51,673 nucleotides of DNA, from positions 1 through 51,673 of the forward strand of contig JAFGEC010000232.1 in assembly GCA_016931775.1 (NCBI GenBank), written 5' to 3'. Positions 18,935-40,837 of this stretch are shown here, in pieces. How positions within the stretch are numbered: the stretch's first letter is position 1; the number at the start of each line of letters is the position of its first letter. Position numbers and translations under genes: made by a program. The stretch comes from Candidatus Zhuqueibacterota bacterium (GTDB lineage: Bacteria; Zhuqueibacterota; Zhuqueibacteria; Residuimicrobiales; JAFGEC01). The notes under the pieces are model-generated. The model was given only the letters and a program-made list of their open reading frames with translations, did no database searches and had not been told where the DNA came from.

Positions 18935-18935
18935 A

Positions 18936-25055: not shown

Positions 25056-25057
25056 AA

Positions 25058-26908
25058 ATGAACAGAAAAAATTATTATTATTTATGTTTTTTCCTGGCGT
25101 TGGCTTTGCTTTTGAGGCTGGGTTTATTGCTTATCACATGGCTCAATCCCGACGAAGGCGCACATTTGATGGATGGGCGGCTTATACTTGATGGTTACAT
25201 ACCTATCGTGGATTATGAAGCACGACAGCCGTTTTATGTTTTTATGCTGGCAGTTGTTCTTAAAATATTCGGAGCCAGTTTTATCTATGGCCGATTGTTG
25301 CCGGTGATGGCATCTCTTGGAACCGGTTTGATATTGTTTTATATCGGCCGTCGATTGTTTAACGATGCTGTCGGACTTGTCGCCTGCGCTATCTATTTGT
25401 TTTTGCCCTTTCTATTAATGTGGTCGGTTGTTGTAAAAACCGAACCCTTAACTATTCTGCTCGCGAGCGCCAGTATTCTGTTTATGTTAAAATCTTACAA
25501 CATCTCTATTGAAAATCTAGGCTGGATGGTCTTTTCCGGGATGTTTGCCGCATTGGCTTATTATGTAAGAGCTTCCGCTTTTTTAATACCGACCATCATT
25601 GTCCTCTTTCTTTTATTTCGCTATGATACCAAACCGAAAAAAAACGGACCGCGGTTATTTTTGTTTGCCTTGGGATACTTGGTCGTTTGTATTTTAGCCG
25701 GAACAGTGTTTTTATCATCTATGTCCTTTCGGGATATTCTAATATCGCAAGTTAATCCGCTGGATACAATATACGATCATGTTGCTCATTTTATTACCAA
25801 ACTTTGGATACAGGGGAAAAGCGTGGAAGGGAGTGGTTTTCGTGTCCTGGATCAAAACTTTAGCTACACAAAAGCCTCCTGGTATCAGGGTGTTGTTTTT
25901 TCTCTGTTTGTATTTGTCGGCGGGATTTTGGCTTTTCTGCATTTTCTTAGTCATCGTTTGAAACACCGGATCAATACTTATTTATTGCTTGCCATATGGA
26001 CCGGATTTATCCTTTTCCCCTACATTTATCAAACTTTTTATCGCGGTTTTTTCCCACAATATATAACTGAAGCGTTACCGCCGTTAATTCTTTTAACCGC
26101 ATCGACCGGCCATAGGTTGATGCTTAAAACATCTCTTGGTAAACGAAGAATTTTGACTGTGATAGGGGTTTTCGGTTTGTTGTTTATACTGCAAAAAGCA
26201 TTTTGGCAATATTATCCCGGATTCACATGGACGCTCATTATAGCTGCCCTTTTGTGTGGAGTGGTTTTATATCGCAAGGCAGTCAATTTTTATTCTTTAT
26301 GTTATATTGTTGTAGCTGCCGTCCTTTCAGGTATATTAAACCATTACCTGGAAGGAATCGGTGTAAACCGGCTTCTATGTGTCGGATGTACATTATTAAT
26401 GTATTCAACAATACTGCTTTGCAACTCTATTCTAAAATGGAAAAAAGTCCTACTGAAGTCCAGCAGTGTTGTGTTGCTGACCGCTTTTTATATTACCGCC
26501 ATTTACTCCGGATCGCTTATCGGTCCTCGGTATGTGGGTGTTTGGTCACCCAAAGTAGTATATCAGATTAAAAAAATCCTGGAAGAACATGGTGAACGGG
26601 CCGATACCGTGCTTTCCGGAGGGATGATTTGGACCTTTGAGTCCGGCCGTTATCCTTTTCTGAATGTATCTCATCCCACGCAATTTTTACTCAAGGAATG
26701 GCCTGATTTTGAAATTCAGTTTGAGAACAACAAACCGGATTTTATCATAAAGGAAAGCTATACGGAGAAAAAGTTTTCCTATTTCTGGGAATTCCTTGAA
26801 TCACAAATCGATAGCAGCTACAGCCTGGTAAAATCGGTTCCGGCTCCACCCGGCACAGTGGATATCTATAAATTAAACGATCCCTTCTCGACAATTGATG
26901 TTCAGTAA
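25058..26908 (+). CDS. GT-C fold polyprenyl-phosphate-sugar-dependent glycosyltransferase (ArnT/PMT, GT39/GT83-like)
   Basis: 616 aa. More than 10 TM helices followed by a soluble C-terminal domain. An acidic first-loop motif, NPDEGAHLMDG, follows TM1 as in ArnT/PMT_2 proteins. Confidence 0.75.
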   Translation: MNRKNYYYLCFFLALALLLRLGLLLITWLNPDEGAHLMDGRLILDGYIPIVDYEARQPFYVFMLAVVLKIFGASFIYGRLLPVMASLGTGLILFYIGRRLFNDAVGLVACAIYLFLPFLLMWSVVVKTEPLTILLASASILFMLKSYNISIENLGWMVFSGMFAALAYYVRASAFLIPTIIVLFLLFRYDTKPKKNGPRLFLFALGYLVVCILAGTVFLSSMSFRDILISQVNPLDTIYDHVAHFITKLWIQGKSVEGSGFRVLDQNFSYTKASWYQGVVFSLFVFVGGILAFLHFLSHRLKHRINTYLLLAIWTGFILFPYIYQTFYRGFFPQYITEALPPLILLTASTGHRLMLKTSLGKRRILTVIGVFGLLFILQKAFWQYYPGFTWTLIIAALLCGVVLYRKAVNFYSLCYIVVAAVLSGILNHYLEGIGVNRLLCVGCTLLMYSTILLCNSILKWKKVLLKSSSVVLLTAFYITAIYSGSLIGPRYVGVWSPKVVYQIKKILEEHGERADTVLSGGMIWTFESGRYPFLNVSHPTQFLLKEWPDFEIQFENNKPDFIIKESYTEKKFSYFWEFLESQIDSSYSLVKSVPAPPGTVDIYKLNDPFSTIDVQ

Positions 26909-26920
26909 TCATTTCAAAAT

Positions 26921-28402
26921 ATGACTTTAAAACAAAAGACAATTTCGGGCGTTTTGTGGACCGGCGTCGCAAAGTTGGTGTTGCAGTGTTATTTGGTCGT
27001 AGTAATGGTCATTCTGGCCCGTTTACTCGCCGTAAAAGATTTCGGGATTATCGGTATGGCGCCGTTATTAACGGTGGCCATAAGTATCGTCAATGACAGG
27101 GGATTAGGTTCCGCCATTGTGCAGAAAAAGAACCTGGATCAAAATCATCTTTCGTCGGTTTTTTGGGGTGGTATAATTTTCAGCACGGTTCTTTTTGCGT
27201 TATCTTTGATGCTCGCTGCGCCGCTTGCACGATTCCTACATGAACCACAACTCGAATCCGTCATTTCCGTCCTTGCTGTCGGCTTTATTATCGGATCGTT
27301 TGCCATCGTACAGAGAGGATTGCTTACCAGGGAAATGGATTTTAAAAAATTGGCAATTATAGAGGTTTTTTCCGTAAGCGTCAGCGGAACCGCTGCTGTT
27401 GTTATGGCGCTTATGGGATTCGGCGTTTGGAGCTTGGTAAGCAATATTCTTTTAAAATATATTCTGGATGTGATATGTTTTTGGAAATTTAGTAAATGGC
27501 GGCCGTTGCTACATTTCCGTTACCGGGAATTTAAAGAGTATTTTACCTATAGTGGCAGTGTGATGGCTACAGATTCCGTGGTATATCTGAATAACGTTGC
27601 TGATATATCCATTATTGAAAAAATGTTGGGATCTGAGCTGTTCGGATTTTACAGTATGGCGATGAATTTTGTTAAAATTCCTATTACCCGACTATCCGCA
27701 ATAGTGGCCAAAGTGGTCTTTCCTGCTTTTTCTCAAGTACAAAATGACATGCTCAAGTTTAAAAATGGCTATTTAAAGGCAACCGGCCTTATTTCAGTTA
27801 TCACATTTCCGGTACTGGCAGGTATGGCGCTTTTAGCCCGTGAGTTCATAATTGTATTTTTTACGGAAAAATGGCTGCCGATGGCTACGCCACTCATCCT
27901 GTTAACACCCATGGCTATTCTCAAATCAGTCGGGACCATCCGGGGTCCCGTCTTTAAAGCATGCGGCAGACCGGATATTCTGTTTAAATGGAATGTGGCC
28001 TATTTTATTTTGCTCGTTGCAGCGGTTTATTGGGGCACACGTTACGGTTTGACGGGCGTCGCTGCTTGTTATACCGGGTTATATGTTATCACATTTCCAA
28101 TCATTCAAAAAATTACCAACCGGCAGGTTAACGTGAAAGACCGTGAATACTATCGTGTAATCTCTACCAGTTTTGTCGCGTCGGCTCTGATGTTGGGCGT
28201 TGGTCTGGTAACAAAGGTGATATTAAAACATTTCTTCAAATCTCATGTAATGGTAGTATTGTTCTCCTGTTTTATTGTATGTATACTTGTATATATCGGC
28301 TTGGTTTTTTTACTTGATCGAAATATTGTAAATGAATTTATAGAAATAATGATTCAGCGAAAATATAAAAAAAATCAGCAGGGAAAATCCGACGCGTTAT
28401 GA
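26921..28402 (+). CDS. Wzx-type (MOP superfamily) lipid-linked oligosaccharide flippase
   Basis: 493 aa, ~12-14 TM helices. The N-terminus KTISGVLWTGVAKLVLQCYLVVVMVILARLL..DFG is typical of polysaccharide biosynthesis (Polysacc_synt) proteins. Confidence 0.8.
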   Translation: MTLKQKTISGVLWTGVAKLVLQCYLVVVMVILARLLAVKDFGIIGMAPLLTVAISIVNDRGLGSAIVQKKNLDQNHLSSVFWGGIIFSTVLFALSLMLAAPLARFLHEPQLESVISVLAVGFIIGSFAIVQRGLLTREMDFKKLAIIEVFSVSVSGTAAVVMALMGFGVWSLVSNILLKYILDVICFWKFSKWRPLLHFRYREFKEYFTYSGSVMATDSVVYLNNVADISIIEKMLGSELFGFYSMAMNFVKIPITRLSAIVAKVVFPAFSQVQNDMLKFKNGYLKATGLISVITFPVLAGMALLAREFIIVFFTEKWLPMATPLILLTPMAILKSVGTIRGPVFKACGRPDILFKWNVAYFILLVAAVYWGTRYGLTGVAACYTGLYVITFPIIQKITNRQVNVKDREYYRVISTSFVASALMLGVGLVTKVILKHFFKSHVMVVLFSCFIVCILVYIGLVFLLDRNIVNEFIEIMIQRKYKKNQQGKSDAL

Positions 28403-29502
28403 AAATTGCTATAATGGGAATACGAGGGATTCCGGCCAATTACGGCGGTTTCGAAACTTTTATCGAGGAAATGGCTCCTCGCCTTGCAGCAAAAGGACAC
28501 CAAGTTACCGTGTTCGGTCGTTCGCAATATATACAGTACGATCAAAAATATTATAAAAACGTGCGACTGCGAATTTTCCCAACCATCGGTCACAAGTATC
28601 TTGATACGGTGGTTCATACATTCTTATGTGCTCTTGTTAGTTTTTTTGACCGTTATGATGTCGTGTTTATTTGTAACAGTGCCAACGCGATATTTTCTTT
28701 CATGCCGCGCCTCTGGTTTAAACCTACCGTGCTCAATGTAGACGGATTGGAGTGGAAAAGGCAAAAATGGAATTGGGCCGGAAAGGCATTCTACAGGGTA
28801 TCCGAATTTCTGGCAACGTTTCTTCCCACAGCTATCGTATCCGACGCAAGAGAAGTTGAACGATACTATTTGCAAAAATTTGGCAAAAAGTCATGTTTTA
28901 TCCCCTACGGTGCGCCGGATGGCCCGGTCAAAAGTGTGGATATATTAAAAAAGTATAAACTTGAACCAAATGAATATATTTTGTACGTTAGTCGTATGGA
29001 GCCGGAAAACAATGCTCATAGAGTTGTCAGAGCTTTTGAGCGCGTAAAAACAGAGAAAAAACTTGTTATGGTCGGTGATGCACCTTACAGTCATGAATAT
29101 ATCGAAAATTTGAAAAAAACCAATGACCGGCGGATTATCTTTACCGGTTATGTGTTTGGACAAGGATATCGAGAATTTCAGAGCCATGCATATTTTTACA
29201 TCCAGGCAACGGAGGTCGGCGGTACACATCCGGCATTGTTGGAAGGAATGGGTTTCGGCAATTGTATTTTGGCCAACCGGGTACCGGAACACGAAGAGGT
29301 CGTTGGAGATGCCGGTATTTATTTTTCCACTGTTGACAACAACGACTTGACGGCAAAATTACAGCAACTGTGTGATCATCCGGAAATAGTGCAAAAATAT
29401 CGGATAAAAGTCCGACAGCGAGTCAAACAAAAGTATAACTGGGATGTGGTGACAAGACAATATGAAAGTTTGTTTTTTCGTGTTGCGAAAAACAAGGAAT
29501 AA
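28399..29502 (+). CDS. GT-B glycosyltransferase with DUF1972-type N-terminal domain (WchF/RgpA-like, often rhamnosyltransferases)
   Basis: 367 aa. MKIAIMGIRGIPANYGGFETFIEE is the hallmark DUF1972 N-terminus. C-terminal EVGGTHPALLEGMGFGNCILA. ATGA overlap with the upstream stop. Confidence 0.8.
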   Translation: MKIAIMGIRGIPANYGGFETFIEEMAPRLAAKGHQVTVFGRSQYIQYDQKYYKNVRLRIFPTIGHKYLDTVVHTFLCALVSFFDRYDVVFICNSANAIFSFMPRLWFKPTVLNVDGLEWKRQKWNWAGKAFYRVSEFLATFLPTAIVSDAREVERYYLQKFGKKSCFIPYGAPDGPVKSVDILKKYKLEPNEYILYVSRMEPENNAHRVVRAFERVKTEKKLVMVGDAPYSHEYIENLKKTNDRRIIFTGYVFGQGYREFQSHAYFYIQATEVGGTHPALLEGMGFGNCILANRVPEHEEVVGDAGIYFSTVDNNDLTAKLQQLCDHPEIVQKYRIKVRQRVKQKYNWDVVTRQYESLFFRVAKNKE

Positions 29503-29526
29503 TTTTTTTAAATATGGAGAATATTG

Positions 29527-30255
29527 ATGGTTAATTCGTTGTCAATTTTGATCGCAATTCCTGCCTATAACGAAGAAAAGAGTATCAGTGATGTGATTGG
29601 TCGGGTACGGTCTTCTTTGGGAGAGTATGACCTATTGGTCGTTAACGACGGATCCGTAGACAATACTGCCAAAGTGCTTAAACAAGAAAATGTCACTACG
29701 GCAACACATTTATGCAATCTTGGTTATGGACGTGCTATTCAAACCATTGTTAAATTTGCCCTTAAAAACGGATATGATGGTCTGATTACACTGGATGCCG
29801 ACGGCCAACACCAACCCGAGCAAATAAGAGAATTGATTCGGTCATTTGAAAACAGCGATGTGGATATGATCATCGGTTCACGGCATTTGGGGAAAAACGC
29901 CTATAAGAATATCCCCTTCGGTCGGAAAATTGGAATGCTGCTGTTTTCCCGTATCGTGGGGCTTTTGTGTGGAAAACGAATATATGATACATCATCCGGA
30001 TTGAAAGCCATCCGTAAAACCGTATTTAAACCGCTGATCGAATGTAATTTTGTTGATTTTCATGCCGAAGCAATCGTATATTTGATGAGGCTTGGTTATA
30101 AACTTGACGAGTTTCCAATTACTGTGGCAGAGCGAACTGCGGGTGAATCCATGTATTCTTTTTTGAACCATTTTAAATATCCTCTTAAAACCGGTTTGCT
30201 CATTGTGTTATCAATCATGGATGCGGAAATTAAAAAGAGAGGGGTTCAAAAATGA
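29527..30255 (+). CDS. GT2 polyprenyl-phosphate glycosyltransferase-like (Dpm1/PpgS-like, no long TM tail)
   Basis: ~243 aa. IAIPAYNEE, VNDGSVDNT, LDADGQHQP (DxD), DTSSGLKA. Confidence 0.85.
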   Translation: MVNSLSILIAIPAYNEEKSISDVIGRVRSSLGEYDLLVVNDGSVDNTAKVLKQENVTTATHLCNLGYGRAIQTIVKFALKNGYDGLITLDADGQHQPEQIRELIRSFENSDVDMIIGSRHLGKNAYKNIPFGRKIGMLLFSRIVGLLCGKRIYDTSSGLKAIRKTVFKPLIECNFVDFHAEAIVYLMRLGYKLDEFPITVAERTAGESMYSFLNHFKYPLKTGLLIVLSIMDAEIKKRGVQK

Positions 30256-30623
30256 CTGTTCAGGGAATTATTCTGCTTGATATTATCGGCATAGCTTTTA
30301 TTTTTTGGATTATTTCTCTTGTTAGACATACTCGACTTTATGTGGGCTATGGCGTTATTTTTATCACATCGATATTTGCCACTATGATGATTATATCCGT
30401 TCCATTTCTGCTGCATCTGATTACCCGGCTGATGGGGGCGCTGTTTCCGGCTTCCGCTCTTACAATGCTGGCTTTGGGATTTATTATCTTCCTTTTGATC
30501 TATATACTTACCCAAACCACCATCTTATCCAATCGGCTGTCGCGCCTGGTTCAGGAAATCGCCATTCGAGATGCGGAGCAGCAAAAAAAAAATTTAAATA
30601 AAAATACGAATGCCTTTGAATAA
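30252..30623 (+). CDS. Small 4-TM membrane protein, DUF2304-like
   Basis: 123 aa. Three to four TM helices followed by an amphipathic tail, LSNRLSRLVQEIAIRD. Position immediately after a Dpm1-like GT2 (ATGA overlap) and before a GT-C gene is the usual DUF2304 context. Confidence 0.6.
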   Translation: MTVQGIILLDIIGIAFIFWIISLVRHTRLYVGYGVIFITSIFATMMIISVPFLLHLITRLMGALFPASALTMLALGFIIFLLIYILTQTTILSNRLSRLVQEIAIRDAEQQKKNLNKNTNAFE

Positions 30624-32250
30624 CGACAAGAAAATTTTCTATATTTTAATAGCCATATTGTTGGTATCGGCCGGGTTGCGGTTTTACTCGATTCATTTTG
30701 GTGAACCTTTCCGTTACCATCCCGACGAGGTGAAACTGCTATCGACGGCCGGACGTTTGCTGCAATCCAAATTTGTTGACAGCGACGCTTATTTTGCCTA
30801 CGGTGTTTATCCCGTTTTTTTTACCCTTTTGCTGGCCGTTTTGATAGGTGTTTTTATTATAATGAACATTTTAACAGGACGTTTTGCCTCCTTTGACGAT
30901 GCACGAATTCTTTATGAGAATAATCCTTTCCCTTTTTTGGCTGTCGGCCGATATTTCGTCGCCTTTCTGGGCATTTGTACCGTGTATGTTATGTACCGGC
31001 TCTTAAAGAGAATGTACAATAAGACGGTTGCCATTCTCGGCGCTGCTTTATTGGCTGTAAATTTTGTTCATGTTCGAAATTCTCATTTCAGCACCGTTGA
31101 TGTTCCTGCAACCTTCTTTACACTCTTGGGATTGTATTTTTGTGCACTGATTATCGAGAAACCTCGTCTGCGCTATTATCTTTTCGCCGCTGTTTTTATC
31201 GGTTGGGCTTTTGCCACAAAATTCAGCCTGTTTTTTTTAGCTTTGCCTTTTATTTATGCCCATTTCTGTGCATCATATACTGAAAAGTCATTTGTAACGC
31301 GATTATTGAGCAAAAATTTTTGGATTGGTTCCGTAACCGGTGTCGTCGCGTTTGTTCTTGCCTGCCCTATTATTTTCTTAAATTTCGAAAAAACCTGGGG
31401 TGGGATAATGAGGACGAAAAACTTCGAGAGCGCCGGAAAAATCGGCAGCGGTGGTGCATTGCTCTCTTATTGGACCGGACAGCAATCAGAAGGTTTTGGC
31501 GTTTTTTACCCCAATTCCATTCCCCATACTTTTGGCGTATTGCTTACCCTTATCGCCGTTTTGGGAATTTTCTATTTATGGATCCGTCATCGCAAGCAGG
31601 ATATTTTATTGCTGGCTTTTTTTATCCCTTCCTATATTATGTTCGAAGGTATGGCATACCGCGCCATGCGTCATATTTTACCTTTGATTCCCGTTATTTT
31701 GGCAGCGGTTGCTGTTTTTCTTGGCAGACTATTTATAATTTTTGGGTCAAAAAAACGTAAATATATTATTGTAGTGACCATGCTCGCGCTTTTGGGCAGT
31801 TCGGTGGCCAGAACGACGTTTTATCTCTATTATCTCGGTCAACCGGATCCGCGCAGCCAGGCACTGGAATGGTGCTTGGAACATATACCGGAGTCGAGTT
31901 CAGTAGCTGTAGAGTCATTCCCGCCGTTTTTACCCGGTTACAATGGAAATGAAGTGAAAGGTTCGACACGGTATAACATCTTTGAAATGAATTTGCTCCA
32001 GAAAGACTCCCGGCTCAGTTCAAAGCTGGTGAAAACTATTGCACAAGATTCCATTAATTACTATATTATGGATGGTTTTACACGTCATGTGTTTGACTGG
32101 GAGCAAACGTACCGTCGCTACCCTGAAATAATCAAAGACAGACAAAAATTTTTCCAATGGCTCAATTCCCACAGCCGAATTGTCGCGGAATTTAAACCTG
32201 CAAATGATAAAATTCAGCCTTTTATTCGGATTTATAGGATTATGTTTTGA
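30610..32250 (+). CDS. GT-C fold glycosyltransferase (ArnT/PMT_2-like)
   Basis: 546 aa, multi-TM with a soluble C-terminal domain. The first-loop motif FRYHPDEVKLL follows TM1. Confidence 0.75.
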   Translation: MPLNNDKKIFYILIAILLVSAGLRFYSIHFGEPFRYHPDEVKLLSTAGRLLQSKFVDSDAYFAYGVYPVFFTLLLAVLIGVFIIMNILTGRFASFDDARILYENNPFPFLAVGRYFVAFLGICTVYVMYRLLKRMYNKTVAILGAALLAVNFVHVRNSHFSTVDVPATFFTLLGLYFCALIIEKPRLRYYLFAAVFIGWAFATKFSLFFLALPFIYAHFCASYTEKSFVTRLLSKNFWIGSVTGVVAFVLACPIIFLNFEKTWGGIMRTKNFESAGKIGSGGALLSYWTGQQSEGFGVFYPNSIPHTFGVLLTLIAVLGIFYLWIRHRKQDILLLAFFIPSYIMFEGMAYRAMRHILPLIPVILAAVAVFLGRLFIIFGSKKRKYIIVVTMLALLGSSVARTTFYLYYLGQPDPRSQALEWCLEHIPESSSVAVESFPPFLPGYNGNEVKGSTRYNIFEMNLLQKDSRLSSKLVKTIAQDSINYYIMDGFTRHVFDWEQTYRRYPEIIKDRQKFFQWLNSHSRIVAEFKPANDKIQPFIRIYRIMF

Positions 32251-33989
32251 AAAGAATTTCTGAAAATAAAATTGTTCTTTTGATTTTTCTCGTTGCTCTG
32301 ATTTTGCGCGTGGCGTATGTTTTGAGTCTGGAAGAAAAATGGTATTTTTTTGATACGGTTTACTATGATGCTGCCGCTCAATCGCTGATTCAGGGTGAGG
32401 GATTCGGCCCCAGCTTGTATTTTCAAAATCTGTATGCAAATTATTGTCTTGAACCCCTTTATCCGCTGTTTCTTGCAAGCGCTTATGGCATATTCGGACA
32501 CTCTTTTCTTGTTCCCCGTATTTATCAGGTGATTTTGAGTATGCTTGTGCTCCTTTTACTTTACATTTTGAGCAAAAAACTTTGTCCCTCTCATTGCTCA
32601 TTAGTGTTACTTTTATATGGCGCCGTGTTTCCGTTTTTTGTGTTTATAACAGGGCTTTTATACATTACGCAATTGTTTACTTTTTTTATTGTTTTGCAAA
32701 TTTTTGTTTTTTATCGGTTTTATATAACACAGCGTTTGGGCTGGTTGATAGTCGGCGGATTGCTGATGGGATTGGCGATTCTGGCGCGACCAATTTATTT
32801 ATTGAGCATTCCTCTGTTTTATTTGTGGGTGTTTTTCGCTTGTAAAGGCAGGTTTGGGAAAAAGACGTTAACCGTTTTTGTTTCGGTGATTTTAACAATG
32901 CTTGCTTTGACACCGTGGACCGTACGAAATGCTCTGGTTTTTCAAAAATTTGCTTTTGCCCGGGCCTGCCTTTCGCAATCGGAAGCCTTTGGCAGCACCT
33001 TTTGGGAAATACAAAGACGAAAGGTTTACGGTGAGCATGGATTTCGAGCGCGTCAACTGGGTGTACATTGTTATTTTGAAAACAATAGAGTCGCTGTTGA
33101 TTATTATGTTGATGGTAAACCTGAATATAAATATGTTTCTTTGGAAGATATAAACCTCCCCGATTTTGATTCTTATTCGGGTATTTTGTTCTGTGGTCCC
33201 TTTGAGAACCGATTAAAGAGTATTCGTGGTTATGAACGGTCGATAAGTGGTGCCGATACAACTGATCATATCGTGTTCAATTCGGACTCTCCTGAGATCG
33301 ATTTCGTGCATGTACATAATGTACAAAAAACCGATTCGTTTTTTGTCTTTTCTGCTGATGGTGATGGATGGGAATTTCCCATGGTTTTTACGCAAGGTGG
33401 ACGATCAAATTACTTTGAAATGGATTATGCACCGGGCACGATGGCACAGCAGGCACGCCGGGTTGCCATGTTGATTTATCTTGATAAACCGCAGCTAAAA
33501 TCAACAGGCCTCATGGTTTGGCTGCATCCGTGGGGTGAGCCGGATTTGTGGCGTTTTGAAAACGGAAAACCCGCGTCTTCCATTCAAGTTTTAAAATATC
33601 CTTACGAGTCGAAGCGTTACAGTTTTAAAAACCTGTTGTCAAAATACCCCAAAGAGTATTTACTTGTTCATTATATCCCTAGATTTCTACGATTTTGGTC
33701 ACCCAAGGTGACAGGGGTACGAAACAAAGAGCAGCAGCCCGGTCCTTTAAAACAAGCTTTGTCGATCTCTTTTTTCATACCGGTATTGATCCTTTTCCCG
33801 TTTGGTATCTGGAAGATGAGGAGGAACTTTATAACGTTGGCTTTACTGTTGATCCCGATCGTTACGCTCAGTTTCGGGTATTCAATTTTCGGTACACAAA
33901 CAAGATACCGGATTCCCATAGATGGATTTTTAATTCTGTTGGCTGCCCAGGGATTGTCTTTGTTGCGTGGTGTAAAAAAGGAATGCTGA
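32247..33989 (+). CDS. GT-C fold glycosyltransferase-like membrane protein with a large internal soluble domain
   Basis: 580 aa. The N-terminus KIVLLIFLVALILRVAYVL...FFDTVYYDAAAQSLIQGEGFG is typical of ArnT-like proteins. A ~260-aa non-membrane segment lies between the TM bundle and the last two TM helices. TTGA overlap with the upstream stop. Confidence 0.65.
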   Translation: MKRISENKIVLLIFLVALILRVAYVLSLEEKWYFFDTVYYDAAAQSLIQGEGFGPSLYFQNLYANYCLEPLYPLFLASAYGIFGHSFLVPRIYQVILSMLVLLLLYILSKKLCPSHCSLVLLLYGAVFPFFVFITGLLYITQLFTFFIVLQIFVFYRFYITQRLGWLIVGGLLMGLAILARPIYLLSIPLFYLWVFFACKGRFGKKTLTVFVSVILTMLALTPWTVRNALVFQKFAFARACLSQSEAFGSTFWEIQRRKVYGEHGFRARQLGVHCYFENNRVAVDYYVDGKPEYKYVSLEDINLPDFDSYSGILFCGPFENRLKSIRGYERSISGADTTDHIVFNSDSPEIDFVHVHNVQKTDSFFVFSADGDGWEFPMVFTQGGRSNYFEMDYAPGTMAQQARRVAMLIYLDKPQLKSTGLMVWLHPWGEPDLWRFENGKPASSIQVLKYPYESKRYSFKNLLSKYPKEYLLVHYIPRFLRFWSPKVTGVRNKEQQPGPLKQALSISFFIPVLILFPFGIWKMRRNFITLALLLIPIVTLSFGYSIFGTQTRYRIPIDGFLILLAAQGLSLLRGVKKEC

Positions 33990-34934
33990 ATGTATAAAAA
34001 TAAAAAAAATTGTGTTGTTGTACCCGCCTATAACGAGTCCACCCAGATTAACCGAGTTCTGGAATCAATGCCGGAGTTTGTTGATAAAATAGTTGTTGTG
34101 AATGATAACAGCAAGGATAATACGGCAAAAATCGTGCAAGAATACGACAGCGACCGAGTTGTACTCATAAATCATGATATCAACCAGGGTGTGGGCGGAG
34201 CGATCGCAAGCGGATACAAATGGGCACGTGATAATGATTACGATGTAGCCATCGTTATGGCGGGTGACGGACAGATGGATCCCGGAGATCTGCCGGCTGT
34301 TCTCGATCCTGTTGTTGAAAACCGTGCCGATTATTCAAAAGGCAATCGGCTTTTTACCGGCGAGGCGTTTAAGAAAATTCCCAAAATACGATATTTTGGC
34401 AATTCGTTGCTTTCTTTTTTTACTAAAATTGCGTCGGGCTATTGGCACATTGCCGATTCCCAGTCCGGCTATACTGCCATAAATCTTAAAGCATTGCGAA
34501 CCATCGATTGGGACGCAATGTATAAACGATACGGCCAGCCCAACGATCTGTTGGTCAGGTTAAACGTTTACGATTTTCGCGTTTGTGATGTAAAAATAAA
34601 ACCTGTGTATGGAATTGGTGAAATTTCAGGTATTAAATTACGCAAAGTGATATTTACCATTGGATGGTTATTGCTCAAACGGTTCTTCTGGCGACTGGCG
34701 CAAAAATATGTTATCCGTGATTTCCATCCCTTGGTATTCTTTTATATTTTCGGCATAGGCCTTTTAGGCTTGAGTCTGCCGCTGTTTCTGCGTTTTATGT
34801 ACTTTTTATTTACCGTAGGGCGTATTCCCAGTATAAATTTCCTGTCGTGGATGTTATGCATGATTATGGGATTTCAATTTGTCTTTTTTGCCATGTGGTT
34901 CGATATGGAGAGGAACAGGGACCTAAAAGGGTGA
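33990..34934 (+). CDS. GT2 polyprenyl-phosphate glycosyltransferase (GtrB-like) with C-terminal TM helices
   Basis: 314 aa. VVVPAYNE, VNDNSKDNT, MAGDGQMDP (DxD), DSQSGYTA. C-terminal TM pair. Confidence 0.85.
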   Translation: MYKNKKNCVVVPAYNESTQINRVLESMPEFVDKIVVVNDNSKDNTAKIVQEYDSDRVVLINHDINQGVGGAIASGYKWARDNDYDVAIVMAGDGQMDPGDLPAVLDPVVENRADYSKGNRLFTGEAFKKIPKIRYFGNSLLSFFTKIASGYWHIADSQSGYTAINLKALRTIDWDAMYKRYGQPNDLLVRLNVYDFRVCDVKIKPVYGIGEISGIKLRKVIFTIGWLLLKRFFWRLAQKYVIRDFHPLVFFYIFGIGLLGLSLPLFLRFMYFLFTVGRIPSINFLSWMLCMIMGFQFVFFAMWFDMERNRDLKG

Positions 34935-36112
34935 AGAAAATATTACATTTTACCAGCTCTTATCCGCGGGAAAAATCCGACCTTTCGGGTATTTTTATAC
35001 AAAAATTGGCCTTGAATTGTGTTTCCGAATTTCAGATTTTCATTCTTACACCGCATTGTCCCTGTACCGCCAGGCATGAAATTGTTAACGGTATAACAGT
35101 GATCAGATTCCCATATTTTATTCAAAAATACCAACGGCTTGTTTACGGCGATTCGATTTTGCAAAATTTGAAAAGAAATAAATGGCTCTATCTTCAGGTG
35201 CCGTTTTATATTGTGTTTTCGGCTATTTACTTTGCCGCTGCCGTACGCTCCCGTCGTATTGATCTGGTTCACGCACATTGGATTTTCCCCCATGGATTTG
35301 TGGCCGTTTTAATGAAAAGATTGCTGAATTTACAGTGTAAAATAATCATCACATCGCATGGCAGTGATATGTTTTCAATGAACGGTTGGATTTTTCAGAA
35401 ATTGAAAAAATACGCCCTTTCTTATTGTGATAAAATAAATGTCGTAAGCTCTGCAATTCAGGATAAAATTATCAAAAATTTTGGCTTGACAAATATCGCC
35501 CGGATACCTATGGGCACAGAGGCGGACATGTTTATCCGAGCAAAGCCAAAACCGGTCGAACAGGATTATCTGTTGTTCGTCGGCCGTTTGAGTGAGAAAA
35601 AGGGCGTGACCTATCTACTTGATGCTTTTCGCATTATCCGTTCCGAAGGTTATACTTTAAAATTGGTCATTATCGGCTCCGGCAACCAAAAAAAACGGCT
35701 CGAAGCGCAGGCAAAAAGACTTTTATTAAACGGGCATGTAATTTTTGCAGATGCAATGGAACAGCAAAAGCTGGCGGCTTTTTATCAACATGCCCGTGTC
35801 CTCATCGGACCGTCAATTTCCGAAGGATTTGGTCTGGTTTTCGTTGAGGCCATGCTGGCAAAATGCCCGGTCGTGGCTTCAAATATCGGCGGAATACCGG
35901 ATTTAATTCAACATGAAAAAACCGGACTTTTGGTGGAGCAAAAACAGCCTGTGCAAATCGCCAGGGCCGTTGAACGTCTTTTAAATGATCCCGTATTTTC
36001 TGAAAAAATAGTGGAAAGGGCATTTAATTATGCACAGCAGCATTTCACCTGGAACGCTGTTTCCAAACAGTTCAAATTACTTTATGATCAGGTGCTCGCG
36101 GAAGTGTCTTGA
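34931..36112 (+). CDS. GT-B fold glycosyltransferase (GT4-like)
   Basis: Start placed at GTG 34931 (VKKILHFTSSYP; GTGA overlap with the upstream stop). C-terminal GPSISEGFGLVFVEAMLAKCPVVASNIGGIPDLI E-x7-E block. Confidence 0.85.
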   Translation: MKKILHFTSSYPREKSDLSGIFIQKLALNCVSEFQIFILTPHCPCTARHEIVNGITVIRFPYFIQKYQRLVYGDSILQNLKRNKWLYLQVPFYIVFSAIYFAAAVRSRRIDLVHAHWIFPHGFVAVLMKRLLNLQCKIIITSHGSDMFSMNGWIFQKLKKYALSYCDKINVVSSAIQDKIIKNFGLTNIARIPMGTEADMFIRAKPKPVEQDYLLFVGRLSEKKGVTYLLDAFRIIRSEGYTLKLVIIGSGNQKKRLEAQAKRLLLNGHVIFADAMEQQKLAAFYQHARVLIGPSISEGFGLVFVEAMLAKCPVVASNIGGIPDLIQHEKTGLLVEQKQPVQIARAVERLLNDPVFSEKIVERAFNYAQQHFTWNAVSKQFKLLYDQVLAEVS

Positions 36113-36235
36113 ATGAAATATCATTTTTTAAATCGGTTTTATAAAAAATACTTTCACGGCATTATTTCTGCAACTGAATATATTAAATATCTTTTGACTC
36201 GAAAATCTGAACTTTTATTTTTGCATCCGCTATGA
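36113..36235 (+). CDS. Candidate 40-aa micro-ORF filling the intergenic gap (hypothetical)
   Basis: ATG 36113 immediately follows TGA 36110-36112. Its TGA stop (36233-36235) overlaps ATG 36232 of the next gene. Product: MKYHFLNRFYKKYFHGIISATEYIKYLLTRKSELLFLHPL. No homology recognised. Confidence 0.2.
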   Translation: MKYHFLNRFYKKYFHGIISATEYIKYLLTRKSELLFLHPL

Positions 36236-37185
36236 AAAGTATCAAATACATAATTTTTGTTTTCATCGTGCTGATTGCAGTGATTTATTTTTATTTCAAT
36301 GGTGATAAACTTAAATTGCTCATCCGTATAAACTGGTTGGATGCGGTGATTTTGTTCATTTTTGTTTTTTTATCTTTCCTGGTTCTGTCTTATCAATTTT
36401 ATTATTACATGCGGATATTTAAAATTAGACTTTTATTTAGGGAATATTTTGGTCTGACGGTTTGCAGTACCATGTTCAACTATTATCTGCCCGCCCGTGG
36501 TGGTCTGGTAGCCAGAGCGTTTTATCTTAAAAAAAAGCATGGTTTTTATTATTCCCACTATACCTCGTTGATTGTCGGATCATATTTAATTACATATAAC
36601 ACCACTGCCCTGTTTGGACTCATTGTCGGTATTATTCTCTATATAAATGGACTTCAAAATCAGCTCAATCTGATCTTCATTTTTACTTTTTTGCTTGTAG
36701 TATCACTTGCAGGAACCACTATTTTACTCATTATTGTTCGTAAAAAACGGTTCGCCGGCCGCAGTAAGGTGAGCAATTTTTTTAGCCGTGTTAAAAACGG
36801 ATTAAAATATTTCCGCCAGAATCGGCACTTGATCCTAAATATTATATCGATCAATTTACTGTTCATTGTTGTTATGGCATTACGTCTTTACTGGAGTTTT
36901 TGTAGTCTTGATATAAGCGTCAACTTTTTCCAGATTTTTTGCGTGAGTGCGCTGGCAAATTTTACCATGGTCATATCGATTACACCGGCTAATTTGGGCA
37001 TCAGAGAGGGGATCGTCGGTTTTTCGGCGAGTTTACTGGGTGTTGAACTACCGGATGCCATACTTGCGGCAGCTCTGGATCGGTTAGCCGGTATGATTTT
37101 TAATTTTGCTTTCGGACTGTATTACAGCCGGCTATTACTGCATGATGTGAACTGGAAAAGGAAACCGGATATAATGGATAACTAA
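36232..37185 (+). CDS. UPF0104 / lysyl-PG-synthase-TM-like 'flippase-like' membrane protein (second copy)
   Basis: 317 aa, ~8 TM helices. NYYLPARGG and TPANLGIREG loops are typical of the family. Confidence 0.65.
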   Translation: MKSIKYIIFVFIVLIAVIYFYFNGDKLKLLIRINWLDAVILFIFVFLSFLVLSYQFYYYMRIFKIRLLFREYFGLTVCSTMFNYYLPARGGLVARAFYLKKKHGFYYSHYTSLIVGSYLITYNTTALFGLIVGIILYINGLQNQLNLIFIFTFLLVVSLAGTTILLIIVRKKRFAGRSKVSNFFSRVKNGLKYFRQNRHLILNIISINLLFIVVMALRLYWSFCSLDISVNFFQIFCVSALANFTMVISITPANLGIREGIVGFSASLLGVELPDAILAAALDRLAGMIFNFAFGLYYSRLLLHDVNWKRKPDIMDN

Positions 37186-37191
37186 TTCATC

Positions 37192-38565
37192 ATGGATTTT
37201 TTGTCATTTTTATACATGGGTTTTGGTTTCTTCATTTCAATTAATCAGGGCGTGACGATGATAATCGGCGTTCGATCCAATGGTCTTATTTTGGGTGCCG
37301 ATGTGTTGATGCCGGTGGATCTCTTTGTCTATTTGATATTAATTTTTGCAAAAAATAAAAGCCGCCAATCAAAATATTATTTGATGGTCGTGAGTGCTAA
37401 AATTCTCGCCATTCTATTTCTTTTAATTTCAGTAAGCGGTGTTTTTTTTGCTGATGAACCAGTGCTGGTGAAATTTCAACTGGTGCATTTAACAAGAGCC
37501 ATTTTGATTTTTTATTGTATTGCCAGCAGATTGCACGATTATAAACATATGAGATATTTTATTATCGGATTATTATGGGGATTGGGCTTTCAGTGTTTCA
37601 TCGGATTTTATCAGTGGCAATTCGGTCCAATCACTATACCGTTTCTTGAAACTGGGTACGGATTTAGAGTGACCGGAACAATGGAAGTTACCAATGCGTA
37701 TGGCGCATACCTCGTTTCAATGATACCCATACTCGCCAGGGTGATGCTGTTTACCGATTTGAAACCGAAAATAATTTATTATGTATTTGCCGCATGGGGG
37801 CTTGGCGCCCTGTATGCAACCTACACACGCGGTGCTTGGTTGGCTTTTATGGGATCCATGGTGTTTTTTTTCGGGAAGGAATTTTTAGGTAAAAAAGTGA
37901 ACATGAAAAAAAAGTTATTAGTGATCGGATTGAGCGTTGTGGTTTTTTCAACCGTTGTGGTAAAATATGGAGATATTATCGTCAAACGGATGGAGAATTC
38001 AAAACAATCCTTGACGGCGGATGCAAAGCAAAGCCGTATGAGTCTGGCCAAGGATGCTATGCGTGTCATTTCAGAACATAAACTTTTTGGCGTTGGCCTG
38101 GAGCACTATCGATTTTACTCCGATCCGGAAATTCCCGGACTTCGGATTGTGCACAATGCCTTTTTACTTATTGCCGCAGAACAGGGTATTTTAAACTTTA
38201 TTATTTTTGTTACCTTACATCTTATAGTTGGAATAGGGGCGCTTAAAATATTCAAATTTCGTGATCCGTTTCTCTATCATGTCGGCATGGGAACCTTTAC
38301 CGCTTTTATCGGCCTTTTGGTATATCATATGGTCGCACCCGACTATCGGATGATCGGCGTCTTGTTACAGCATTGGCGGCTGCCGGGAATGATTTTAGCA
38401 TTGCTTGTTTGTAACGATCTCACCGAAAAAAGAAAAACCAAAAAACGACGGCAGATGGCGATGGCCGGTGTGTCGGGTAACGATGTAAAGAAACCTGCTT
38501 CAGAATTATCTCCAGTCGATATCCAACGACGGTATATGAAAAGGTTTCCTCATAACGAACTTTGA
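37192..38565 (+). CDS. O-antigen ligase/polymerase family (Wzy_C domain) membrane protein
   Basis: 457 aa, ~10-12 TM helices. TYTRGAWLAF followed by a periplasmic loop containing HNAFL (Wzy_C-like signature). Confidence 0.75.
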   Translation: MDFLSFLYMGFGFFISINQGVTMIIGVRSNGLILGADVLMPVDLFVYLILIFAKNKSRQSKYYLMVVSAKILAILFLLISVSGVFFADEPVLVKFQLVHLTRAILIFYCIASRLHDYKHMRYFIIGLLWGLGFQCFIGFYQWQFGPITIPFLETGYGFRVTGTMEVTNAYGAYLVSMIPILARVMLFTDLKPKIIYYVFAAWGLGALYATYTRGAWLAFMGSMVFFFGKEFLGKKVNMKKKLLVIGLSVVVFSTVVVKYGDIIVKRMENSKQSLTADAKQSRMSLAKDAMRVISEHKLFGVGLEHYRFYSDPEIPGLRIVHNAFLLIAAEQGILNFIIFVTLHLIVGIGALKIFKFRDPFLYHVGMGTFTAFIGLLVYHMVAPDYRMIGVLLQHWRLPGMILALLVCNDLTEKRKTKKRRQMAMAGVSGNDVKKPASELSPVDIQRRYMKRFPHNEL

Positions 38566-40028
38566 ATATTATGGCACAAATTCATAAAAATATAAGTTTT
38601 GCCGGTATCGGTCAATTTCTGTATACAATTCTGGCTTTTATCCTGATACCTTTTGCCACACGTTATCTGGATAACGACGGTTATGGATTGTATACTTTAG
38701 CCGCCACTTTGGGTTTTTTTATAACGATGGCCGGTGACCTGGGTCTGTCCACATTACTGACCCGTGAAATTTCAAAAAACCGACGCCCTGCATCGCGTTT
38801 GTTTTTTTGCGCCAATGGTATCAAAACGGCAACAACTCCGATAGCCGTCGGTGTATTGTTGATTTATCTCAAACTGGGTGGATTTGATGCCATCGGTATA
38901 CAGGCAATTCTCATTTTTGCCCTCTCTTCCATTTTTAGTGCATTTACACAGGCCATTTTTGCGGTTTTTAGGGGCTTTGAAAAAATACAGTATGAAACTT
39001 TGGGCGTTTTTATCGACAAGTTGCTGTCCGTTACACTCGGTATTCTTTTTCTGGTACTTGAATTTGATATACGCGTTTTTATTTCATCTTTTCTGATTGC
39101 TGCTGTGGTCAAGTTTGCTCTTGCACTGTTTTATTTAACAAGAAAATTTATACCTTTCGGTGTCACATTTAATCTCACCCGTTCAAGAGTATTGCTGCGT
39201 ACCGCTGTCCCTTTCGGTATCTCGGTTTTTTTAGCCATGTGCTATAACTACCTGGATATCATCATGCTGTCCGTCATGACGAATCTGAAGGAGGTCGGTT
39301 TATACTCTGTAAGTTATAAACTGTTGTCGCTGACAACGATCATTCCTACAGTACTCACAACCGCGTTTTTACCTCAACTTTCAATCCATTTTCGTGATTC
39401 CAAAACACTGTCAGCGCTTTTTTTGAAAGGCTGCACCTTTCTTTTTATCTTTTCGTTTCCTATGATTCCTTTTGTGTTTTTGCTGCCGAAGGAGATCATT
39501 CTATTAATTTCCGGCCCCGGTTGGGATGGCTCGGATATTGCTTTACAAATTCTCGTTTTTGCTGCATTCGCACAAATGTTAAACAGTTTTTTTGTGCCGT
39601 TATATGCAGCCGTCAATCTCCAAAACAAGATCGTTCGGTATCAAATTATCGGTCTGGTGGTCAATATTGTACTGAACTCAATTCTGATCCCCATAATCTC
39701 CTTCCGTGGTGCTGCAATTGCAACCGTGGCCACTGAATGGATTATTTTAGTTTTTATTTTCCGGTGGGCGCGGCAAAAAATTTTAAAAAAGCATATTCAT
39801 TTACTCGACGGTCGTTTTATATTGAAAATAGCCGCTGCGACGATCCTGATGACCGGTAGTATTTTAATACTGCAACGGATAAGGATAACAGGTATAACAT
39901 TGTTTCTCCTGGTCGCCGGTATTTACCTTTTGGGACTGCAAATTACTGGAGCGATTGGGTTTAAATCTATTTTAAAAAGTGCACGAAAATTTATACAATC
40001 AAAAAGGAAGCAAAGCATTCGTGAATAA
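38562..40028 (+). CDS. Wzx-type (MOP superfamily) oligosaccharide flippase, second copy
   Basis: 488 aa, ~14 TM helices. The real start may be ATG 38571 (MAQIHKNISFAG). Confidence 0.8.
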   Translation: MNIMAQIHKNISFAGIGQFLYTILAFILIPFATRYLDNDGYGLYTLAATLGFFITMAGDLGLSTLLTREISKNRRPASRLFFCANGIKTATTPIAVGVLLIYLKLGGFDAIGIQAILIFALSSIFSAFTQAIFAVFRGFEKIQYETLGVFIDKLLSVTLGILFLVLEFDIRVFISSFLIAAVVKFALALFYLTRKFIPFGVTFNLTRSRVLLRTAVPFGISVFLAMCYNYLDIIMLSVMTNLKEVGLYSVSYKLLSLTTIIPTVLTTAFLPQLSIHFRDSKTLSALFLKGCTFLFIFSFPMIPFVFLLPKEIILLISGPGWDGSDIALQILVFAAFAQMLNSFFVPLYAAVNLQNKIVRYQIIGLVVNIVLNSILIPIISFRGAAIATVATEWIILVFIFRWARQKILKKHIHLLDGRFILKIAAATILMTGSILILQRIRITGITLFLLVAGIYLLGLQITGAIGFKSILKSARKFIQSKRKQSIRE

Positions 40029-40797: not shown

Positions 40798-40837
40798 ACC
40801 GGTTTTCTATAAATCCGTAATAAAACAAAGGTTTCAA

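Follow-up and report, generated by a model that had tools for sequence, protein, structure and literature searches.

Five overlapping or abutting genes in a glycan locus of a Zhuqueibacterota bacterium and their probable role in transmembrane glycosylation

What kind of glycosylation machinery is encoded by five tightly packed genes in the genome of a Candidatus Zhuqueibacterota bacterium? The genes lie at positions 29527-34934 of a 51,673-nucleotide (nt) stretch of DNA (contig JAFGEC010000232.1 of assembly GCA_016931775.1), the whole of which was analyzed and is hereafter called the window. In order, they code for a glycosyltransferase (GT) of the GT2 family (GT2a), a small membrane protein of 123 amino acids (aa) belonging to the DUF2304 family, two GT-C-fold membrane glycosyltransferases (GT-C1 and GT-C2) and a second GT2 protein (GT2b). 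The original prediction saw in them a cassette of two donor synthases and two transferases. We consider it likely that these genes, as part of a long operon-like glycan locus (approximately 17975-42073, with glycan genes up to 46997), encode two multi-component transmembrane glycosylation modules. The five genes are a slice of that locus and not a self-contained two-plus-two cassette: they belong to a coupled array of approximately 21 genes, and the window holds four GT2 proteins resembling polyprenyl-phosphate (polyprenyl-P) sugar synthases and four GT-C proteins.

All five open reading frames (ORFs) were verified on the + strand, overlapping or abutting as had been described: GT2a (29527-30255, 242 aa), the DUF2304 protein (30252-30623), GT-C1 (30610-32250, 546 aa), GT-C2 (32247-33989, 580 aa) and GT2b (33990-34934, 314 aa). 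Overlaps of 4 nt (ATGA), 14 nt and 4 nt (TTGA) join the first four genes in turn, no gap separates GT-C2 from GT2b, and the GT4 gene that follows starts with a GTG inside the GT2b stop codon (GTGA at 34931, 4-nt overlap). Although the mechanical ORF start of GT2a is TTG 29524, ATG 29527, with GGAG 6 nt upstream, was taken as its start. The starts of GT-C1 and GT-C2 were in doubt because gene callers elsewhere chose TTG 30616 and TTG 32280, respectively, and they were compared with a 79%-identical relative, L002 (GCA_054923695.1). ATG 30610 is conserved in L002, where the position of TTG 30616 is no start codon; likewise, a GTG occupies the position of TTG 32247, which keeps a GTGA overlap, and no start codon is found at the position of 32280. 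Since L002 conserves the starts at 30610 and 32247 and not the alternatives, we regard them as settled. The genes are real, with orthologues in the same order in other assemblies. The proposed start/stop coupling is also real, but it is not peculiar to the five genes, as distances between genes do not exceed 24 nt throughout 17975-36112 and are mostly 0 or negative; the approximately 21 co-directional genes of 17975-42073 are separated by 119 nt at most. Rfam and tRNA scans of the window returned no matches, and in a promoter and terminator consensus scan of 22000-41000 the terminator-like sites were all located within coding sequence, with counts near those of shuffled sequence.

GT2a matches PF00535 at 75.6 bits, above the Pfam gathering score, and a Kyte-Doolittle scan detects no transmembrane (TM) segment in it. 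Its top matches in a sequence search of the PDB are all polyprenyl-P glycosyltransferases, the nearest solved relatives being ArnC (9hwj, E-value 2.7e-19), the dolichol-phosphate-mannose (Dol-P-Man) synthase (DPMS) of P. furiosus (5mlz, 6.9e-17) and GtrB (2e-6), and the original assignment as a Dpm1/ArnC-like GT2 is borne out. Residues 90-94 read DADGQ and fit DxDxQ, which has been put forward as the hallmark motif of polyprenyl-P glycosyltransferases among the GT2 enzymes and whose first Asp is not the metal ligand (PMC10821137). Of the NCBIfam families PpgS is matched best, but its 97 bits are so far from the cut-off of 370 that GT2a is not a PpgS orthologue; the ArnC family is matched at 69 bits, its cut-off being 529. 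These results suggest that GT2a is probably a polyprenyl-P sugar synthase of the GacI/PpgS/WpsA type, perhaps one that handles an N-acetylhexosamine (HexNAc).

The identity of the 123-aa protein is central to this interpretation. It scores 49.3 bits with PF10066 (DUF2304), for which the cut-off is 25.5, with residues 7-109 covering positions 4-106 of the 106 in the profile. A match to GtrA, the other family that had been considered for it, was absent at E-values up to 0.01, and with DUF2304 as its sole Pfam match a GtrA identity was rejected. Four TM helices had been predicted; we found three strong Kyte-Doolittle segments (6-24, 35-53 and 69-87) and a weaker one between them, together with a C-terminal amphipathic tail and conserved LYVGYGV and FPASAL motifs. 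In size and in its three to four TM segments the protein resembles the DUF2304 family (approximately 110-140 aa), and its own DUF2304 homologues are 114-170 aa long; the family member GacJ has been described with three TM segments (bioRxiv 10.1101/180810). The DUF2304 proteins GacJ, Rv3632 and WpsB bind and stimulate GT2 enzymes of this type, and the partner of every characterized DUF2304 protein is a polyprenyl-P-HexNAc synthase (bioRxiv 10.1101/180810; PMC10821137; PMC9671496). The GT2–DUF2304 pair is thus a known unit, with GacI/GacJ, PpgS/Rv3632 and WpsA/WpsB as its characterized examples, and the characterized relatives of the small protein are synthase activators or anchors, not flippases. 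By analogy, the 123-aa protein is probably the membrane anchor and activator of GT2a. Because all three characterized DUF2304-partnered enzymes use HexNAc, the sugar of GT2a is most likely a HexNAc.

Both GT-C assignments were confirmed. GT-C1 matches PMT_2 at 56.0 bits (cut-off 26.1) and PMT (PF02366) at 40.0 bits (cut-off 22.7), and GT-C2 matches PMT_2 at 39.4 bits. Direct PDB sequence searches with the two proteins gave no matches, and AlphaFold2 models were built from alignments of 57 and 24 homologues, respectively. The GT-C1 model reached a predicted local distance difference test (pLDDT) score of 93.1 and a predicted template-modelling (pTM) score of 0.93, and the GT-C2 model a pLDDT of 89.1; both match GT-C structures almost exclusively, the Foldseek matches of probability 1.00 being GT-C enzymes apart from the PIG-U protein described next. 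With GT-C1, the high-probability Foldseek matches in the PDB (E-values up to approximately 0.02) were only GT-C enzymes, namely STT3, ALG12/ALG9, ArnT (5f15, 8.9e-8), PglB, Pmt4, Emb and AftA, or PIG-U, a GT-C-like subunit of the GPI transamidase, with TM-scores normalized to the query of 0.50-0.57. GT-C2 is closest to Pmt1/Pmt2 (6p25, 5.5e-7), with Pmt4 also matched, and its N-terminal module superposes on ArnT over approximately 245 columns with a root-mean-square deviation of 4.1. Directly after its first TM segment GT-C1 carries a YHPDE motif of which H37, D39 and E40 are invariant in the 57 sequences; at the same place in GT-C2, at least 90% of the 24 sequences keep D36. GT-C1 ends in a C-terminal periplasmic domain of approximately 130 aa. 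The predicted structures identify both proteins as GT-C-fold membrane glycosyltransferases, and from their family and the neighboring donor-synthase genes we infer that they would use polyprenyl-P-linked donors outside the cytoplasm. BLASTP detects no significant similarity among the four GT-C proteins of the window, and a recent duplication as the origin of GT-C1 and GT-C2 was rejected.

GT-C2 is further distinguished by an insert of approximately 190 residues (residues 270-452 or thereabouts, 33054-33602, + strand) located between TM blocks and built entirely of strands in the model, which we describe as a beta-sandwich. No Pfam family matches it, and Foldseek returns weak concanavalin-A-like matches (E-values 0.025-0.06). 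The insert is missing from shorter homologues; of 1.84 billion representative clusters only 19 match it, and most of these are GT-C2 orthologues in which it occupies the same place. It is probably a carbohydrate- or acceptor-binding domain. Three giant proteins (2473-5440 aa) contain repeats that match a sub-segment of the insert (residues 106-183, approximately).

The last gene of the block also proved to be the GtrB-like GT2 that had been called. GT2b matches PF00535 at 88.5 bits, above the gathering score, and has two C-terminal TM helices (248-266 and 284-302), the layout of GtrB, ArnC and AglJ; it would be attached to the membrane by this hairpin, whereas GT2a, devoid of TM segments, is coupled to DUF2304. 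Its NCBIfam matches are AglJ (TIGR04182, 68.7 bits over the full length, cut-off 325) and PpgS (59.9 bits). A profile of four GT2b orthologues scores best in the PDB against the Dol-P-Man synthase 5mlz (1.2e-11); ArnC and GtrB come next, and generic GT2 proteins are matched as well. The motif at residue 91 is AGDGQ, the first Asp having been lost, while the orthologue in locus L006 reads DGDGQ.

We compared eight related loci, namely the window, L002, L006, L031, L032, L033, L034 and JGI 3300072015. The window derives from a metagenome, and the GT-C1 and GT-C2 homologues at 42-50% identity carry the name candidate division KSB1 (Ca. Zhuqueibacterota, FCB group). A common order is kept in which a GT4, a YdjC-family gene and in some cases a further GT-C gene (GT-C0) precede Wzx1, a DUF1972-containing GT4 (GT4-DUF1972) and GT2a, followed after other genes by GT-C1 and GT-C2 and, further on, by Wzy_C, Wzx2 and a methyltransferase. 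The succession Wzx1, GT4-DUF1972, GT2a is retained in L002, L006, L031, L032, L033 and L034. All eight loci share a core of GT2a, DUF2304, GT-C1 and GT-C2, to which GT2b, present in five (window, L002, L006, L032 and L033), is accessory. DUF2304 directly follows GT2a in four of the eight; the small ORF has both a DUF2304 match and conserved synteny with GT2 and GT-C genes, the two properties on which the initial view of it depended. Each locus with GT2b has an LPG_synthase_TM-family gene no more than two or three genes away, and no such gene was seen in the three loci lacking GT2b (L031, L034 and JGI 3300072015). In the window this gene lies at 36232-37185 (+ strand), codes for a protein resembling the flippase domain of MprF and matches PF03706 at 99.3 bits and TIGR00374 ("flippase-like domain") at 54.2 bits, above the cut-off. 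These genes are not all orthologous, the BLASTP E-value between those of the window and L032 being approximately 0.02, and the L033 neighbor, a 335-aa gene with no Pfam record, was taken as an orthologue of the L032 gene because the two share alignment segments. The co-occurrence hints that the LPG_synthase_TM protein flips the GT2b product.

Beyond these loci, a scan with the DUF2304 alignment, restricted to one genome per species, yielded 23 loci from Acidobacteriota, Chloroflexota (including Anaerolineae), Gemmatimonadota and others. In 23 of 23, DUF2304 is directly preceded by a short GT2a-like gene, and the two mostly overlap by 4 nt. Five of them (L004, L010, L012, L014 and L017), from Acidobacteriota and from metagenome-assembled genomes labelled Heliomicrobium/Heliobacteriaceae, encode, directly before the GT2–DUF2304 pair, a tandem of polytopic proteins (approximately 540 and 570 aa, with no Pfam domain on record) that are remotely related to the GT-C1 and GT-C2 families (hhalign profile-profile comparison, probability 95-96%). 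The arrangement of two GT-C genes plus GT2–DUF2304 therefore recurs across phyla.

The comparison of sequence identities sheds additional light on the GT2a–DUF2304 pair. Between the window and the KSB1 loci L031 and L032, the flanking genes are 70-71% (GT4-DUF1972), 45-50% (GT-C1), 43-47% (GT-C2) and 48-51% (Wzx1) identical, whereas GT2a is 37-38% identical and DUF2304 32% (L031 only). On the contrary, GT2a and DUF2304 of the window are 55-62% and 49-59% identical to those of Acidobacteriota (L004-L018), with which no flanking gene is shared. The window has no distal DUF2304 gene after Wzy_C. The simplest reading of these identities is that a foreign coupled GT2–DUF2304 pair took the place of the resident short GT2 in the lineage that comprises the window, L002 and L006, and that the resident distal DUF2304 was lost. 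A compositional trace of the swap was sought and not found, the guanine-plus-cytosine (GC) content of the pair matching that of its neighbors, both overall and at third codon positions. The apparent exchange of the pair as a unit, between phyla and into an otherwise vertically inherited locus, is comparative evidence that GT2a and DUF2304 work together, and independent support for the idea of an obligate complex.

Taken together, these observations are consistent with two modules. In the first, of the GacI/GacJ/GacK/GacL type, soluble GT2a would dock on the DUF2304 protein and move a sugar, most likely HexNAc, from a nucleotide sugar to polyprenyl phosphate. The resulting lipid-P-sugar, perhaps first extended by GT4-DUF1972 or de-N-acetylated by the YdjC protein, would then be flipped, probably by Wzx1, and GT-C1, possibly also GT-C2, would glycosylate an acceptor in the periplasm. 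The candidates for the intermediate steps are encoded just upstream. Wzx1 (26921-28402, + strand), a MOP-family flippase (Polysacc_synt_3, 273.5 bits; NF007773, 289 bits, above cut-off), is a candidate flippase for the GT2a product, in the role of GacK. GT4-DUF1972 (28399-29502, + strand; DUF1972 and Glycos_transf_1) resembles the pneumococcal beta-1,4-rhamnosyltransferase Cps2T, its best NCBIfam match (NF046071, 164.8 bits over the full length, cut-off 500), and could extend the lipid-linked first sugar; it is 70-84% identical and syntenic in relatives, always between Wzx1 and GT2a. The YdjC-family deacetylase (24237-25055, + strand; PF04794, 141 bits; HpnK and chitin-disaccharide-deacetylase NCBIfam models below cut-off) is, by analogy with NaxD, a candidate de-N-acetylase of lipid-linked HexNAc. 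In the second module, of the GtrB/GT-C type, membrane-anchored GT2b would make a second polyprenyl-P-sugar, which the MprF-flippase-like protein might flip and GT-C2 might use, with its beta-sandwich insert binding the acceptor glycan. Most likely, the polysaccharide produced by the Wzx/Wzy proteins of this locus serves as the acceptor.

Several observations weigh against this interpretation. The organism is uncultured, and the modules are predicted from genes and structure models. In four of the eight loci DUF2304 stands apart from GT2a, after GT-C2 or Wzy_C in the same locus. Neither GT2a nor GT2b comes near any of the NCBIfam equivalog cut-offs (PpgS, ArnC, AglJ and PgfS), so that sugar specificity is a guess that homology does not reveal. 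GT2b lacks the first Asp of DxDxQ, and its single sequence has only weak, generic GT2 matches in the PDB. No GtrA-family (PF04138) gene turned up among the scanned window ORFs of at least 110 aa, and the flippase roles given to Wzx1 and the LPG_synthase_TM protein are drawn from position alone. With four candidate donor synthases and four GT-C proteins in the window, any donor/GT-C pairing is ambiguous, and the pairing of GT2b with GT-C2 is weak, since GT2b is missing from three of the eight loci although GT-C2 is kept. Because loci without GT2b retain both GT-C genes, a single donor that serves the two transferases is as likely as separate donor/transferase pairs, and the earlier step from two donors and two transferases to two distinct decorations is only one of two equal readings. 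The alternative also proposed was a disaccharide branch built outside the cytoplasm; such a branch, if present, could equally be built inside on a monophosphate lipid, as in the WpsA/WpsB route, a Cps2T-like GT4 and a Wzx being conserved directly upstream.

The latter possibility leads to the strongest competing explanation, a route like that of the Lactococcus polysaccharide pellicle (PSP), which we nevertheless consider unlikely. Here, the HexNAc-P-polyprenol made by GT2a and DUF2304 would be a primer that cytoplasmic glycosyltransferases (the Cps2T-like GT4 and others) elongate; Wzx1 would flip the chain, a Wzy-like protein may polymerize it and GT-C1 would ligate it onto another polymer. 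WpsA and WpsB, homologues of GacI and GacJ, act in this manner: WpsC adds rhamnose or galactose to N-acetylglucosamine (GlcNAc)-P-C55 and the GT-C protein WpsJ performs the transfer (PMC10821137). The block of Wzx1, Cps2T-like GT4 and GT2a is conserved in all KSB1-type loci in which the region was recovered, and Wzy_C (37192-38565) and a second MOP/Wzx flippase, Wzx2 (38562-40028), lie downstream. However, a classical phosphoglycosyltransferase of the WbaP/WcaJ type (1219-2676) can prime an undecaprenyl-diphosphate (Und-PP)-linked repeat unit, and this route does not require two tandem GT-C proteins.

Protein O-glycosylation is improbable. GT-C1 and/or GT-C2 would in that case be PMT-like and use the lipid-P-sugar to modify Ser/Thr residues of proteins that are secreted or located at the surface, for instance the giant fn3/Big_1 protein encoded from 47370. 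The PF02366 match of GT-C1, its PMT-style Asp-Glu pair after the first TM segment and the resemblance of GT-C2 to Pmt1, Pmt2 and Pmt4, which likewise have a luminal domain between TM blocks, are compatible with this view, as are the secreted multi-domain protein of at least 1434 aa that follows the locus and the large Golvesin_C proteins that follow it in relatives. On the other hand, PMT_2 is a generic ArnT/PMT-like family from which the "GT39" names at NCBI derive, the insert of GT-C2 is concanavalin-A-like and not a MIR domain, and the neighborhood, with its phosphoglycosyltransferase, Wzx, Wzy_C and many GT4 and GT2 genes, is that of a typical polysaccharide locus, from which the giant ORF is set apart by a 372-nt gap and by its GC content (0.51 versus 0.40-0.42). 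The notion that the GT2 proteins are ordinary repeat-unit glycosyltransferases acting on Und-PP-linked intermediates, with GT-C polymerases or ligases and DUF2304 as a mere tether, is hardly credible: GT2 is a very broad family, neither GT2a nor GT2b reaches an equivalog cut-off and GT2b as a single sequence finds only generic GT2s in the PDB, but the top solved-structure matches of GT2a, the DxDxQ motif, the GtrB-like C-terminal TM hairpin of GT2b, the nature of all characterized DUF2304 partners and the recurrent association with GT-C genes in unrelated phyla speak against it.

A broader version of the two-module interpretation, which we regard as doubtful when all its parts are taken jointly, would make the locus of this diderm candidate phylum a periplasmic glycan-assembly line. 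Its four GT-C proteins, unrelated to one another, would draw on four polyprenyl-P-sugar synthases, and a substantial part of the surface glycan would be built or branched, not merely decorated, outside the cytoplasm, as in mycobacterial arabinan and lipomannan. The LPG_synthase_TM proteins would represent an unrecognized class of polyprenyl-P-sugar flippases co-inherited with GT2b in place of GtrA, and GT-C2 would read its acceptor via its lineage-restricted concanavalin-like insert.

The whole window up to 46997 is a glycan locus and also holds sugar-nucleotide enzymes, many GT4 and GT2 genes and methyltransferases. Besides GT2a and GT2b, two GT2 genes have the features of polyprenyl-P-sugar synthases. 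The first (17975-18934, + strand) is a full-length ArnC/GtrB-like polyprenyl-P glycosyltransferase with a DGDLQ motif and two C-terminal TM helices; in the PDB, its residues 18-309 match ArnC with an E-value of 1.6e-43, GtrB is matched at 2e-30, and it reaches 175 bits against the ArnC NCBIfam cut-off of 529. The second (19926-20909, + strand) is a DPMS/ArnC/GtrB-like GT2 with DADNQ and two C-terminal TM helices that matches DPMS (3.6e-14) and, over its full length, ArnC (1.1e-11) in the PDB. Between them, 18936-19925 encodes a paralogue of the first (approximately 29-32% identity; ArnC NCBIfam, 139.8 bits), which also has an orthologue in L006. Both C-terminal TM helices are retained, but DxDxQ is replaced by TVRVN, and the product is probably a catalytically dead GtrB-like protein. 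GT-C0 (25058-26908, + strand; 616 aa, PMT_2 at 52 bits, eleven Kyte-Doolittle TM segments) starts 2 nt after YdjC, an adjacency kept in L002, L031, L033 and L034. A probable fourth GT-C gene, GT-C3 (42885-44468, + strand), codes for 527 aa with approximately 10 TM segments; its PMT_2 score of 25.3 bits is just under the cut-off of 26.1. Orthologues occur in L031 and in L034, and the L034 protein matches PMT_2 weakly. A second LPG_synthase_TM gene, whose product likewise resembles the MprF flippase domain, lies at 11280-12359.

Other features of the window are of less direct relevance. A B12-binding radical SAM gene (15741-17213, − strand) and a metallophosphoesterase gene (14812-15639, − strand) break the co-directional glycan locus. 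Gene clusters for the hopanoid side chain (HpnK/HpnL/HpnJ) likewise combine the YdjC, LPG_synthase_TM and radical SAM families; in the window, however, HpnK and HpnL score far below their NCBIfam cut-offs. The 625-aa ORF at 12796-14673 follows a 436-nt gap, the largest in the first part of the locus. With a single TM or signal segment, at its N-terminus, and no match beyond a weak one to Big_5, it was rejected as a fifth GT-C. The giant ORF at 47370-51673, which runs off the end of the window, combines a signal-peptide-like N-terminus with fn3, two Big_1 and MG4-like domains. Its product may be located at the cell surface, where it is conceivably a glycosylation target.

The general scheme proposed here is already well known and unchanged by these data, which place it in a little-studied phylum. 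The GacI/GacJ-type arrangement has been studied in Gram-positive cocci and Corynebacteriales; GT2–DUF2304 pairs are widespread in uncultured Acidobacteriota, Chloroflexota, Gemmatimonadota and KSB1-like bacteria, where they recur beside GT-C pairs. The travelling of an MprF-flippase-like protein with a GtrB-like synthase provides a lead, and YdjC could fill the step of the unidentified deacetylase in PpgS-type routes. The pair exchange, the co-occurrence of GT2b and LPG_synthase_TM, the rare insert of GT-C2 and the four-plus-four complement of synthases and transferases are lesser points of interest.

How does this machinery compare with known systems? The logic put forward originally, of a lipid-P-sugar synthase, a small membrane partner and a GT-C transferase, holds, but the small protein is DUF2304 only and resembles neither GtrA nor ArnE/F. 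The same overall logic is found in GtrA/GtrB/GtrC, which glucosylate O-antigen, and in ArnC/ArnD/ArnE-F/ArnT, which add 4-amino-4-deoxy-L-arabinose (L-Ara4N) to lipid A. GT2b and the GT2 proteins encoded from 17975 and 19926 share the GtrB/ArnC architecture, in which a pair of C-terminal TM helices follows a GT-A domain, and ArnT is among the structures matched by the GT-C models. This is nevertheless not a strict Gtr or Arn system, since the scanned ORFs of at least 110 aa include no GtrA or ArnE/F gene; equivalog-level matches to ArnT or ArnC were not found either. YdjC followed by GT-C0 recalls, in position and family only, the FlmF2/NaxD/FlmK route that places galactosamine (GalN) on lipid A in Francisella and in which FlmK is the transferase. 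NaxD is a YdjC-superfamily deacetylase of Und-P-N-acetylgalactosamine (Und-P-GalNAc), on which it acts ahead of a transfer of the GT-C type (PMC11279074).

The closest likeness is to GacI/GacJ/GacK/GacL of S. pyogenes, which add the GlcNAc side chain of the group A carbohydrate and of which all four component types also occur in the window. GacI makes GlcNAc-P-Und, the DUF2304 protein GacJ binds and stimulates it, and the GT-C protein GacL transfers the sugar (bioRxiv 10.1101/180810); GacK is a Wzx-type flippase (PMC10821137; PMC8035078). As in GacI/GacJ, a short GT2 without TM segments is directly followed by DUF2304, the pair in the window being translationally coupled. The likeness is one of Pfam-level membership only. 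Unlike the Gac system, the host is probably diderm, given its relatives in the FCB group, and two tandem GT-C proteins unrelated in sequence replace a single one. The parallel drawn in the original prediction to PpgS (Rv3631)/Rv3632/Rv3779 of M. tuberculosis, which place GalN on arabinogalactan, is also well founded. PpgS, the best NCBIfam match of GT2a, and Rv3632 make polyprenyl-P-GalNAc, which is flipped and deacetylated by unidentified factors before Rv3779 transfers the sugar (PMC9671496); Rv3632, like GacJ, is a DUF2304 protein by which the partner GT2 is stimulated (bioRxiv 10.1101/180810). YdjC of the window could supply the deacetylation, and the M. tuberculosis genes, unlike those of the window, do not form one coupled block with the GT-C gene.

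The order Wzx1, GT4, GT2a, DUF2304, GT-C1 also resembles that of the Lactococcus genes for WpsA/WpsB, Wzx and WpsJ, in whose route the lipid-P-sugar is a primer for elongation and not a monosaccharide donor: WpsA/WpsB make GlcNAc-P-C55, which is elongated in the cytoplasm before flipping and transfer by the GT-C protein (PMC10821137). As outlined in PMC11754754, SccN/SccM and SccP/SccQ of S. mutans comprise two Und-P-glucose synthases and two GT-C proteins for two side chains, a direct precedent for two donors and two transferases, and one of the synthases also serves a further, unidentified transferase. The abstract and outline of that work mention no DUF2304 partner, and the four synthase-like GT2s and four GT-C proteins of the window exceed the complement described there. 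Since every equivalog cut-off was missed, the system in the window appears to be the orthologue of no characterized system. It nonetheless falls within multi-component transmembrane glycosylation, a named class for which a review foresees combinations of partner-dependent and membrane-anchored synthase types (PMC8035078), such as GT2a with its DUF2304 partner and GT2b would provide.

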